Origin: an uncultured Candidatus Saccharibacteria bacterium
Lineage (GTDB): Bacteria > Patescibacteriota > Minisyncoccia > Phycocordibacterales > UBA1550
Reading direction: 5' to 3'
Assembly: GCA_964457625.1 (NCBI GenBank)
Contig: CAYWES010000001.1
Coordinates: 17,725 to 81,724, forward strand
DNA length: 64,000 nucleotides
Under the pieces are notes generated by a model. The model was not told the DNA's origin. It ran no database searches and was given only the letters and a program-made list of their open reading frames with translations. The first letter of the stretch is position 1. Every line of letters begins with the position of its first letter. Positions 45,926 through 48,829 of the stretch are shown in pieces. Made by a program: the position numbers and the translations under genes.

Positions 45926-48829
45926 ATGAAAGCATACGACCACAAGGATCTTGAGGGAAAATGGCAAAAAATCTGGGAGGAGACGGGAGTGTATCGCACG
46001 GATGATTCTTCTGAAAAACCAAAACAATTTATTCTCGATATGTTCCCGTATCCATCAGGAGAGGGTCTTCATGTGGGGCATCCTAAGGGATATATTGCGA
46101 CTGACATCTATGCACGCATGAAGCGTATGAGCGGGTTTAATGTACTCCATCCCATGGGGTGGGATGCGTTTGGTCTCCCCGCGGAACAGTTTGCGATTAA
46201 GCACAAAGTACATCCTCGTGTGGCGGTAGAAAAAAATGTTGCTCGCTACAAAGAGCAACTCTCTGTTATTGGTCTTGATTATGATTGGGCACGCGAGATA
46301 AATACGACAGATCCTGCCTTTTATAAGTGGACGCAGTGGATTTTTTTGAAACTGTTGGAAAAAGGTCTTGCCTATGAGTCATATGAACCGATTAACTGGT
46401 GCCCCACGTGTCAAACGGGTCTTGCTAACGAAGATCTTGATGGAGGGAAGTGTGAGCGATGTGATACTCCCGTCGAGAAAAAGCCCATGCGACAATGGGT
46501 ACTCAAAATTACGGAGTACGCAGACCGCATGCTCAAAGACCTTGATCTCCTTAATTGGCCGGACTCTATCAAGGAAGCCCAACGAAATTGGATTGGGAGG
46601 AGTGAAGGAGCGGAAATAGATTTCAATTTGGTATTCAAATTGCATCCAAAACATAACGATTGGCGCGACCCAAAAGACGAAAAACCTGCGCATATTACGG
46701 TATTCACCACGCGTCCCGATACGCTTTTTGGTGCGACATATCTGGTGCTTGCCCCTGAACATCCTTGGGTAGAGGCTTTGTGGAATACCGAACACGACGA
46801 CAGTGTGGGTAACAAAAGTGAAATAGAGGCATATGTGAAGCATGCCAGGGAAAAGACCGATATAGAACGTGCTGACGCGACGAAAGAAAAAACGGGTGTA
46901 AACGTTGAAGGAGTTGTTGCTCTTAATCCCGTGACGAAAGAAGAGATTCCAATATTTGTTGCGGATTATGTGCTTGGAGGGTACGGTACGGGTGCGGTGA
47001 TGGCTGTCCCGGCACATGACGAGCGAGACTTTCTTTTTGCTCAGAAATTTAGCCTGCCTTTCAGGGAGGTTGTCGTGCCTCATAGGGTTGATTATAAAAA
47101 TCCCCCCGTATCAGAAAAAGAAGTTGTTACACGAAAGAATATTCATGGTCTCGTGCGTAATCCAAAAACAGGCAAGATACTTTGTCTCAAGTGGAAAGAA
47201 CATCCTTGGACAACCCTTGTGGTGGGAGGAGTAGAGGATGGTGAGGATATTATTGAAGCGGCGCGGAGAGAAATTCTAGAAGAGACGGGATATGCACACC
47301 TCAGTGAGGGTCGCATCTTGGGAGGAGAAGTACGTGCCGACTACTTTGCAGCACACAAAGATCAAAATAGAATCGCGTACACTAGTCTTGTTGCATTTGA
47401 TCTTCTTGATGAAGAACAGCAAGACATCTCAGCGGACGAACAGAGTAAACATGAAGTCGTTTGGCTTGATGAGAAGGACGTCACAGTGGAATTGATGACC
47501 CACGCAGAAATGGACATCTGGCTTGAAAGAATGAATGGCGCGACGGGGGCATACACTCATTCAGGTGTTCTTGTGCATTCCGCACAATTTAATGGCAAAA
47601 GTTCTGAAGAGGCAAAAAAAGAGATTACAGAGTTCGCAGGTGGTCGTTGGGTGACAAAGTATCGTCTCAAGGAGTGGGTGTTTTCACGTCAGCGCTACTG
47701 GGGTGAGCCTATCCCGGTTATTCATTGTCCGAAGGATGGTGTTGTTCCCGTTCCCGAGAAGGAACTTCCCGTGCTCCTACCTGATGTGACTTCGTACGAA
47801 CCCACAGGAACGGGGGAGTCACCTCTTGCGGCGATTTCAGATTGGGTCAACACGACATGTCCGCAATGTGGTGGTCCGGGCACGCGCGAGACCAATACGA
47901 TGCCTCAGTGGGCGGGATCATCGTGGTATTACCTTCGTTTCATTGACCCAGAAAATAATGAGGCACTCATTGATCCGAAAAAAGAACATATATGGGATCC
48001 AGTTGACCTTTATGTGGGAGGCGATCATGCGGTGCGCCATCTTATCTACGCGCGTTTTTGGCATAAGTTTTTGTTTGACATAGATGTAGTCCACACTCTT
48101 GAGCCGTTTATGAGACTTGAGTTTCTCGGTTTTATTCTTGCTGAAGATGGTCGTAAAATGAGCAAGCGATGGGGAAATGTCATTAATCCCGATGATGTGG
48201 TAAAAACCTATGGTGCTGACACGCTCCGTCTCTATGAAATGTTCATGGGACCCTTTGAGCAAACTATCGCCTGGAATACCGAGAGTATCATTGGACCACG
48301 AAGGTTCCTTGAGCGTGTATGGCGTTTACGAGAGAATGTTTCATCTTCGGTAAAAGATACCGAAACTCTCGAGACGATTCTTCATAAAACAATCAAAAAA
48401 GTAACGGATGATATTGAAGGGTTTGCCTTTAATACCGCGATTTCTTCGCTCATGGTGCTTTCGAATGAAATGGAGCGTGCCAAAGAATTTTCTCCCCAAG
48501 CCTACGAGACATTCCTGAAACTCCTTGCCCCCTTCGCTCCTCATATTACCGAAGAACTTTGGCATGAATTGGGGCACGAGGACTCAATCCACCTTTCTTC
48601 ATGGCCTACCTACGATCCTCAAAAATGCATCGCTACAGAGGTAACAATTGCCATTCAGATAAATGGGAAGGTCCGCGACACTCTTGTTGTGGCGGCAGAT
48701 ATATCCGAAGACGAAGTTCTCCGTATTGCCCTTGAGCGCCCTCTTGTGTCCAAATGGATGGAAGGGAAGAAGCCCGCAAAAACGATCTTTGTTCCCGGGA
48801 AACTTCTCAGTATTGTCTTAGAAAAATAA
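45926..48829 (+). CDS. leuS: leucyl-tRNA synthetase carrying an inserted Nudix domain
   Basis: HIGH (GLHVGH), CP1/editing [12 protein letters not shown] and [15 protein letters not shown], KMSKR. About 160 extra aa at 47081-47560 contain [23 protein letters not shown]. Confidence 0.95.
   Translation: [967 protein letters not shown]

Follow-up and report, generated by a model that had tools for sequence, protein, structure and literature searches.

A Nudix hydrolase domain embedded in the CP1 editing domain of leucyl-tRNA synthetase from uncultured Patescibacteria

A leucyl-tRNA synthetase with a guest hydrolase

In an uncultured Candidatus Saccharibacteria bacterium, leucyl-tRNA synthetase (LeuRS) contains a complete Nudix hydrolase domain within its CP1 editing domain. 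The gene, leuS, encodes 967 residues and lies in a 64-kb stretch of contig CAYWES010000001.1 (positions 17,725 to 81,724), here called the window, whose own numbering is used throughout (Table 1). This combination of LeuRS and Nudix is real, widespread in the lineage and undescribed in the papers searched. The reading modestly favoured here is that of a bifunctional protein, in which an autonomous and catalytically intact Nudix module occupies a surface loop of CP1 in an otherwise complete LeuRS and would tie nucleotide clean-up to the synthetase.

The host enzyme is a bacterial-type LeuRS by every measure applied. Its open reading frame (ORF) scores 972.5 bits against the TIGR00396 (leuS_bact) model, where the cutoff is 548.4, in two stretches split by the insert, and matches Thermus thermophilus LeuRS (1h3n) with an E value of 5e-221. 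It possesses HIGH and KMSKS signatures, the T-rich motif of CP1 and the conserved editing aspartate. Conservation was assessed across 94 homologs of normal length, in which G47, L48, H49, G51 and H52 of the GLHVGH motif are invariant, as are K747 and R748 of KMSKR, the remaining residues of that loop (K744, M745 and S746) being at least 90% conserved; the two synthetase motifs are therefore intact, as the earlier sequence-only reading of this DNA had maintained. Within CP1, residues T261, R263, T266, G354, T355, G356, H364, D365, R367 and D368 are likewise invariant, and the cysteines of the ZN-1 zinc finger are invariant or nearly so. Ahead of KMSKS, T. thermophilus has a leucine-specific domain that is missing from the window enzyme (window 48140-48170, where query residues 740 to 744 correspond to T. 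thermophilus residues 580 to 637). An AlphaFold2 (AF2) model of the full-length protein has a pLDDT of 88.5 and a pTM of 0.79, with pLDDT values of 86-95 over the insert and both of its junctions.

Site, extent and authenticity of the insertion

Alignment with 1h3n pairs query residue 383 with T. thermophilus residue 362 and query residue 541 with residue 375, so that about 157 residues stand in place of a loop of about 12 (T. thermophilus 363-374). The editing-domain profile PF13603 is split by the insert near profile position 146-151 of 185, and in silico removal of aa 384-540 turns it into one contiguous match spanning profile positions 1-183 of 185. Because deletion restores the profile in this manner, the insert is assigned to the inside of CP1; the sequence-only reading, which had put it after the CP1/editing block, misplaced it in this respect. 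As judged by these alignments, the Nudix domain interrupts CP1 approximately 19 residues past the conserved editing aspartate, D365, with the junction sequences REVV/VPHR and YTHS/GVLV. The coordinates proposed from sequence translate exactly in a continuous frame (insert at 47081-47560, or aa 386-545, and the 11-residue block in which the canonical sequence resumes at aa 547-557).

The G+C content across the insert is 0.46, the same as that of its flanks, and is flat over the junctions. An identical protein with the same neighbours is encoded both by a 144.5-kb NCBI contig and by an independently built Logan assembly. In a database holding one genome per GTDB species, the domain is in frame with both LeuRS flanks and at the same site in 78 of the 80 best species-representative loci, one of the 80 being cut by a contig end and four bearing additional copies at a second site. 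Since the same gene is found on independent contigs and in these in-frame loci, chimeric assembly, a concern attached to the original proposal, is excluded.

These data also bear on a broader explanation, namely that the insert is an artefact or a selfish element, whether a chance motif, a chimera of the assembly or a mobile insertion such as an intein. The unusual length of the protein and the presence of a DUF559 endonuclease-like domain at another site in one relative could be cited in its favour. However, the same architecture recurs in hundreds of independent assemblies without a compositional break, which rules out a chance motif, a misassembly or a private oddity of one genome. No Hint or intein Pfam family is found among the ORF matches, all 160 residues fold as a Nudix domain, model confidence stays high through both junctions and the insert is under strong purifying selection. 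The probability of an artefact or selfish element is consequently regarded as negligible.

A distinct subfamily of the Nudix superfamily

Pfam NUDIX (PF00293) matches aa 405-529 with an E value of 1.4e-12, at 48.2 bits in context and 52.1 bits when the insert is excised (cutoff 21.1), and the match covers profile positions 5-127 of 134 in context, 4-128 being the widest span. The Nudix box conforms exactly to the pattern GX5EX7REUXEEXGU, at the position assigned to it in the sequence-only reading, and is the single match to that pattern among all ORFs of the window. When modelled alone by AF2, the insert attains a pLDDT of 93.3 and a pTM of 0.86 and displays the strand and helix order of a Nudix protein, with the Nudix-box helix at aa 442-454. 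A Foldseek search with this model recovered 498 solved structures at E<=1e-3, and those listed are all Nudix proteins. Profile, box and predicted alpha/beta/alpha sandwich fold together place the domain in the Nudix superfamily, in agreement with what had been proposed from the letters.

Assignment within the superfamily is less direct. The best sequence matches (3exq, NudB, the lupin and Aquifex Ap4A hydrolases, Dcp2 and RppH; E ~1e-6 to 1e-4) extend over the Nudix-box half only. For the C-terminal half, which includes the X-loop and reads [YF]FAxHKxxNR ... W ... E, no sequence relative was found in the PDB. The X-loop, downstream of the Nudix box, is where substrate determinants are located (PMC5389931). 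Taking sequence and structure together, the nearest characterised proteins are small Nudix enzymes of the NTP/NpnN type (NudB, Ap4A and Ap6A hydrolases, RppH, NudI, MutT1 and NUDT15).

Several named families were considered and rejected. Against the PRK00714 models of RppH the insert scores 21.9 bits and the free-standing members described below at most 31 bits, where the cutoffs are 116-259, and the box region alone aligns. Equivalog models for MutT 8-oxo-dGTPase, NudB, ADP-ribose pyrophosphatase and NudC give at most 21 bits for the insert against cutoffs of 79-475, and those for NudE, YtkD and YfcD are all far below cutoff. NCBIfam contains no dedicated model for LeuRS with Nudix, and does contain one for an isoleucyl-tRNA synthetase (IleRS) with a GNAT domain. 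A role in defence was also rejected, as no PADLOC model matched the insert or the free-standing member P0140; a second such member, P0214, gave one marginal match of 19 bits. By sequence and predicted structure, therefore, the insert is a true Nudix fold outside every characterised subfamily. It is a self-contained unit of about 160 residues belonging to a distinct Nudix subfamily, whose signature is W-T-F-x-GG, the Nudix box and [YF]FAxHKxxNR.

Conservation of both enzymes

Among the 94 homologs, G434, G435, R448, E449, E453 and G455 of the Nudix box are conserved in 100%, E440 in 99% and E452 in 98%. In the X-loop, A475, K478, N481 and R482 are invariant and H477 is present in 98%, and R403, W428, W513 and E528 are further positions that are invariant or nearly so in the subfamily. 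Mean pairwise column identity is 0.49 for the Nudix insert, compared with 0.58 and 0.46 for the two halves of CP1, 0.44 for the anticodon-binding/C-terminal region and 0.73-0.75 for the catalytic core. The constraint on the insert is thus comparable to that on either half of CP1 and on the anticodon-binding/C-terminal region. As the functional residues of the Nudix box and of LeuRS are both invariant or nearly so, both activities appear to be maintained.

This pattern bears on the proposal that the module has no catalytic role. The Nudix fold would then be a structural spacer, a surface for binding RNA or protein that might make up for the absent leucine-specific domain, or an allosteric sensor of nucleotides. 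The catalytic and metal-binding residues of the module are 98-100% conserved in LeuRS-embedded copies that are only 58-65% identical overall, which would be unexpected for a scaffold, and the full canonical box is kept in 76 of the 83 copies present in the GTDB genomes at the best 80 loci. A non-catalytic role is accordingly held to be quite improbable.

Distribution across Patescibacteria and other guest domains

Both PF00293 and LeuRS domains are present in each of the 120 best LeuRS homologs, which are 58-65% identical to the window protein and mostly 940-1000 residues long; orthologs of this length with the same insert, whose existence the sequence-only reading had left to be searched for, are therefore abundant. 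Where these homologs are named, they belong to Parcubacteria, Paceibacterota, Taylorbacteria, Vogelbacteria or the 'Patescibacteria group'. A scan of the GTDB species database with the motif [YF]FAxHK[DNG][EQV]NR found 404 genomes, and the named ones are Patescibacteria. The fused form is the standard LeuRS architecture across the numerous Patescibacteria metagenome-assembled genomes sampled and is not peculiar to one genome.

Relatives of 1100-1558 residues harbour additional guest domains, inserted in frame at three or four sites that recur among them (P0003, P0007, P0019, P0021, P0026, P0058, P0110, P0131, P0161, P0207 and P0208). These guests comprise Ser_hydrolase or alpha/beta-hydrolase domains, HAD_2, a full-length Ham1/ITPase (197 bits), DUF559 and extra Nudix domains, with up to three Nudix copies in one protein. 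The enzymes classically known for cleaning up nucleotide pools are ITPase, Nudix, dUTPase and HAD nucleotidases, and in this lineage LeuRS seems, by its domain content, to be a hot spot for the insertion of house-cleaning hydrolases. The window LeuRS itself has an extra 23-residue segment at aa 234-256, opposite which 1h3n has a 15-residue gap and over which the pLDDT of the full-length model falls to 72. This segment coincides exactly with the site on the N-terminal side of CP1 that holds whole domains (Nudix, alpha/beta-hydrolase or DUF559) in relatives, and could be either a remnant or a landing pad.

The Nudix subfamily beyond LeuRS

An exhaustive comparison of a profile with 1.84 billion cluster representatives returned 88 clusters at E<=1e-30 and 355 at E<=1e-10, of which the best 150 were classified. 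The majority of these are LeuRS proteins with the Nudix domain at the site seen in the window. In others it occupies the second site, towards the N-terminal edge of CP1, with tandem arrangements in some and up to three copies per protein, and the set also includes LeuRS fragments and tandem Nudix proteins. In addition, there are complete free-standing proteins of 160-200 residues in which every motif is present, the NPP..GK..R extension at the N terminus among them. Pairwise identity does not separate free-standing from embedded copies, which interleave, with nearest neighbours 45-60% identical.

A second host was found in five clusters (P0248 and P0270-P0273), in which an archaeal-type prolyl-tRNA synthetase (ProRS; TIGR00408, 586 bits) of 641-674 residues has the same Nudix domain between its anticodon-binding and C-terminal domains. 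The closest relatives of these proteins that lack the insert are, where named, labelled Nanoarchaeota or Woesearchaeota (DPANN archaea). One free-standing member (L096, 1830-2375) is encoded in a genome that reads UGA as glycine, and translation with code 25 restores the GG of its Nudix box; the subfamily therefore also occurs in Gracilibacteria/Absconditabacteria-type members of the candidate phyla radiation (CPR).

Some shorter proteins were also recovered. Three of 273-281 residues (P0243, P0245 and P0261) start with methionine and consist of a CP1 fragment (editing-domain profile positions ~80-149) followed by this Nudix domain; they could derive from split LeuRS genes, act on their own as editing-like proteins or be fragments produced by gene calling. 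A word-based homolog search with the insert alone yielded just one fragment-like ORF, P0001 (156 aa), which starts with the LeuRS CP1 sequence FAKAFDLPIKQVV and runs into a Nudix domain with a damaged box (REIKRRDGY). Its sequence suggests a fragment of leuS that is frameshifted or in decay.

Gene neighbourhoods of the free-standing members

The neighbourhoods of ten free-standing members were examined. At the window leuS and at P0140 the gene order is YchF, DUF5671, [Nudix], LeuRS, sigma-70-like, DUF8128 and YceG, in which the DUF5671 and DUF8128 proteins have no assigned function and are conserved in synteny. A gap of 2 bp separates P0140 from the downstream leuS, which itself carries the insert. 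For P0214 (L094, 3451-5303; L095, 492-3217) the YchF-DUF5671 synteny is the same, the gap to the downstream leuS is 3 bp and the encoded LeuRS has no insert, the corresponding alignment passing from query residues 387 to 543 at target residues 370 to 386, with no Nudix match in the 746 residues of that protein. This insert-less LeuRS is 58-59% identical to the window LeuRS, within the range of insert-bearing homologs. Split and fused states in one synteny constitute a classical fusion/fission pair, which argues for a gene adjacent to leuS as the source, or the exchange partner, of the insert.

Other members neighbour different synthetases. P0160 is two genes upstream of an insert-bearing ProRS (L084), P0212 is 16 bp past a ProRS C-terminus and P0178 starts 13 bp after argS; two genes on from P0178 is an IleRS (TIGR00392, 864 bits) with an embedded His_Phos_1 domain. 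The full order at this last locus (L086, 3279-10075) is arginyl-tRNA synthetase (ArgRS), P0178, an 83-residue ORF, the 1184-residue IleRS with His_Phos_1 at aa 523-675, and another Nudix gene, and upstream of the cluster are two more Nudix genes, a thymidylate kinase/deoxynucleoside kinase, a zeta-toxin-like gene and a dUTPase. The remaining five members are beside fpg and a SpoU methylase gene, a PRK-family kinase, another Nudix gene, MarR-type genes, or Fic in the code-25 genome. Five of the ten are thus within two genes of a synthetase gene, where about one in ten would be expected by chance, a figure that is a rough estimate and not a computed background.

Proposed function and competing explanations

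In the bifunctional reading, LeuRS would charge and proofread tRNA-Leu as usual, and the Nudix module would hydrolyse, in cis, the pyrophosphate bond of a nucleoside-polyphosphate compound, candidates being a non-canonical (d)NTP or a dinucleoside polyphosphate such as diadenosine tetraphosphate (Ap4A). The invariance of the His, Lys and Arg of the specificity loop suggests that the X moiety of the substrate is phosphate-rich. The fusion would most likely tie nucleotide clean-up, or the removal of a by-product, to the synthetase in both stoichiometry and location, in organisms whose tiny genomes leave them dependent on salvage. A tie of this kind is proposed because relatives embed ITPase/Ham1, HAD and alpha/beta-hydrolase domains and because the same Nudix domain is found in or beside genes for ProRS, ArgRS and IleRS. 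The nucleotide-related neighbours of the free-standing members are dUTPase, thymidylate kinase and Fpg.

The most specific candidate activity, already suggested in the sequence-only reading and forming a sub-case of the bifunctional one, is that of a dedicated Ap4A/Np4N hydrolase that destroys the synthetase side product, made from aminoacyl-adenylate and ATP or another NTP, where it is formed. A tyrosine ~16-18 residues downstream of the Nudix box is a correlate, and no more than a correlate, of ApnA hydrolases (Dunn 1999, as summarised in PMC5389931), and Y473 of the insert is at +17, in the X-loop. The best sequence and structure matches include the Ap4A hydrolases of lupin and Aquifex, the Ap6A hydrolase of T. 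thermophilus and RppH, the invariant His, Lys and Arg of the X-loop suit a polyphosphate chain, and the subfamily is repeatedly associated with synthetases. Nevertheless, position 473 is tyrosine in only 78% of homologs (the retrieval motif accepts Y or F), no Ap4A-hydrolase model matched past the generic Nudix-box region, and the co-embedded ITPase, HAD and alpha/beta-hydrolase domains suggest a broader house-cleaning role. Moreover, to our knowledge strong Ap4A production is not a property of LeuRS, and ArgRS does not form the compound at all. Dedication to Ap4A/Np4N is for these reasons doubtful.

A different proposal is that the domain is directed at RNA, in the manner of RppH, NudC or Dcp2, with LeuRS as a tRNA platform from which it would remove a 5' triphosphate or a cap (NAD or Np4N) from tRNA-Leu or another RNA. 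CP1 contacts the acceptor end of the tRNA, where the 5' and 3' ends sit together, and RNase P leaves mature tRNAs with a 5' monophosphate; the first of these facts suits the proposal and the second does not. The best NCBIfam matches are RNA pyrophosphohydrolase models, RppH and Dcp2 are among the sequence and fold matches, and one free-standing member overlaps a SpoU RNA methylase gene. However, the RppH scores are those given above (21-31 bits, far below the cutoffs), the ProRS copy, being placed between the anticodon-binding and C-terminal domains, is remote from the acceptor end, and the embedded ITPase and HAD partners are small-molecule enzymes. An RNA-directed role is improbable on this evidence.

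The position of the module within an editing domain also raises the prospect of an additional proofreading site, at which misactivated aminoacyl-adenylates (e.g. norvalyl- or isoleucyl-AMP) or adenylate-mimic toxins from the synthetic site would be hydrolysed. The module is also associated with synthetases of the editing class, namely LeuRS, IleRS and ProRS. Yet the canonical CP1 editing residues are all kept, leaving no obvious gap to be filled, and an aminoacyl-AMP lacks a pyrophosphate bond; we know of no Nudix enzyme that uses such a substrate. The subfamily is also found free-standing away from synthetases, and its archaeal-type ProRS host has no editing domain. Adenylate proofreading thus ranks as highly improbable. 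Overall, a part in nucleotide clean-up or the removal of a by-product, tied to the synthetase, is favoured, Ap4A/Np4N hydrolysis being its most specific candidate form; RNA-end processing, adenylate proofreading and a non-catalytic role are less likely.

Four considerations weigh against the bifunctional reading as a whole. No NCBIfam equivalog (RppH, MutT, NudB, ADPRase or NudC) comes near its cutoff, the scores reaching 31 bits at most where 95-260 would be required. Coupling of the Nudix domain to LeuRS is deduced from fusion and gene adjacency only. Half of the ten free-standing members are not beside a synthetase gene, and this adjacency sample is small. Finally, large multi-domain synthetases may simply be tolerant of insertions in loops, in which case the fusion would be a product of permissiveness and genome compaction instead of function.

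A more general proposal can be put forward tentatively. Aminoacyl-tRNA synthetases may have a dedicated partner in this Nudix subfamily in two radiations of ultra-small organisms that depend on hosts, CPR bacteria (LeuRS) and probable DPANN archaea (ProRS), with the partner encoded either next to the synthetase gene or within it. LeuRS would then scaffold a nucleotide-sanitising centre, composed of Nudix with or without ITPase, HAD and alpha/beta-hydrolase, that acts directly on the compounds used or made by the synthetase. Such a centre might remove Ap4A/Np4N or non-canonical ATP analogues where the adenylate forms, or might add a Nudix-based quality control to aminoacylation.

Features of the window

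Table 1. Positions of leuS and its parts in the window, and of two ProRS loci with the same Nudix domain (numbered within their own loci)
Feature	Residues	Position	Strand	Basis
leuS, bacterial-type LeuRS with embedded Nudix domain	967 aa	45926..48829	+	continuous ORF
HIGH-type signature GLHVGH, class I catalytic core	47-52	46064..46081	+	sequence; conservation
CP1 editing domain, N-terminal part	224-383	46595..47074	+	PF13603 aa 220-395, profile 1-151 of 185
Extra 23-aa segment, N-side edge of CP1	234-256	46625..46693	+	alignment to 1h3n
T-rich motif TTRPDT, within CP1	261-266	46706-46723	+	
GTG, within CP1 N-terminal part	354-356		+	
AHDERD with editing Asp, within CP1	363-368	47012-47029	+	
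Inserted Nudix hydrolase domain, including family-specific N-terminal extension VPxRIDxxNPPxxGK	384-541	47075..47548	+	
Nudix box GX5EX7REUXEEXGU, catalytic and metal-binding helix	434-456	47225..47293	+	exact regex match
X-loop/specificity block, 17 aa past Nudix box; subfamily signature	473-482	47342..47371	+	
CP1 editing domain, C-terminal part	542-580	47549..47665	+	PF13603; 1h3n alignment resumes at query 541 = T. thermophilus 375
KMSKS-type loop KMSKR	744-748	48155..48169	+	sequence; conservation
ProRS with Nudix domain, L084		2762-4693		
ProRS with Nudix domain, L085		2906-4837		

The 64-kb window contains no other Nudix gene and no other insert-bearing synthetase. Its alanyl-tRNA synthetase (54971-56755, +) is plain, with 595 residues, catalytic and tRNA_SAD editing domains, no Pfam C-Ala match and no guest domain. 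Four tRNA-Leu genes are present, at 3767-3851, 4680-4762, 5768-5849 and 21856-21937 (anticodons CAG, TAG, TAA and CAA), together with genes for tRNA-Lys, Cys, Tyr and Trp. Three ORFs of 393-457 residues are without a Pfam match at E<=1e-5 (2477-3679, -; 56849-58027, +; 58038-59408, +).

Significance

Aminoacyl-tRNA synthetases are among the best-studied enzymes, and their accessory domains, both editing domains and those appended in eukaryotes, have led to new biology time and again. In hundreds of uncultured Patescibacteria species, the proofreading domain of an essential synthetase contains a nucleotide hydrolase whose catalytic residues are intact, a situation echoed by the ProRS with DPANN-labelled relatives and by the ITPase, HAD, alpha/beta-hydrolase and histidine-phosphatase inserts of related enzymes. 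In a full-text literature search no account of a Nudix-bearing synthetase, LeuRS or otherwise, came to light, and a comprehensive review of the Nudix clan from 2017 makes no mention of tRNA or synthetases (PMC5389931). The claim that the architecture had not been described before thus stands for the papers searched; as a rarity it does not, since the form is common in its lineage and public databases contain hundreds of such entries, annotated automatically with NUDIX and named only 'leucine--tRNA ligase' or, in some cases, 'class I tRNA ligase family protein'.

If the hydrolase does act on the by-products or substrates of the synthetase, this would represent a new coupling of translation to control of the nucleotide pool. 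If it is only a passenger, it would show that ultra-reduced genomes pack house-cleaning enzymes into essential genes, and that CP1 loops are permissive insertion sites useful for engineering. LeuRS is also a common phylogenetic marker, and inserts of 150-600 residues disturb its alignment and annotation.

Comparison with known systems

Canonical bacterial LeuRS, represented by the T. thermophilus (1H3N and 2BYT) and Escherichia coli (4AQ7 and 3ZGZ) enzymes, shares with the window protein its family, domain order, HIGH/KMSKS core, ZN-1, CP1 and anticodon-binding and C-terminal domains. The window enzyme differs in having a Nudix domain in place of a CP1 loop, in the extra segment at aa 234-256 and in lacking the leucine-specific domain. 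Small single-domain Nudix proteins (the uncharacterised 2AZW of Enterococcus faecalis, NudB, NudI, the Ap4A and Ap6A hydrolases, RppH, MutT1 and NUDT15) are 15-26% identical to the insert, with the likeness confined to the box half. In contrast to these, the Nudix domain of the window is embedded within a domain of another enzyme.

Two described fusions offer parallels. NCBIfam NF040702, an isoleucine--tRNA ligase with an N-acetyltransferase domain, likewise joins an essential class I synthetase to an unrelated small-molecule enzyme domain. However, the guest there is a GNAT domain and the host a different synthetase, and the window protein scores 72 bits against a cutoff of 1999, making this an analogy and not a membership. 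NadM-Nudix (NMN adenylyltransferase/ADP-ribose pyrophosphatase; PRK05379 models) similarly fuses a Nudix domain to an enzyme that uses ATP and releases pyrophosphate in adenylyl transfer. In that case the fusion is end to end and the Nudix domain specific for ADP-ribose, whereas the Nudix of the window lies within a domain and gives weak model matches far below cutoff.

The free-standing members of the subfamily (e.g. P0140, P0214, P0160 and P0178) are separate polypeptides, some of them away from synthetase genes and some with degenerate Nudix boxes. In other respects they resemble the embedded copies, to which they are 40-60% identical, with the same motifs and length, and they are often found beside leuS, proS or argS.

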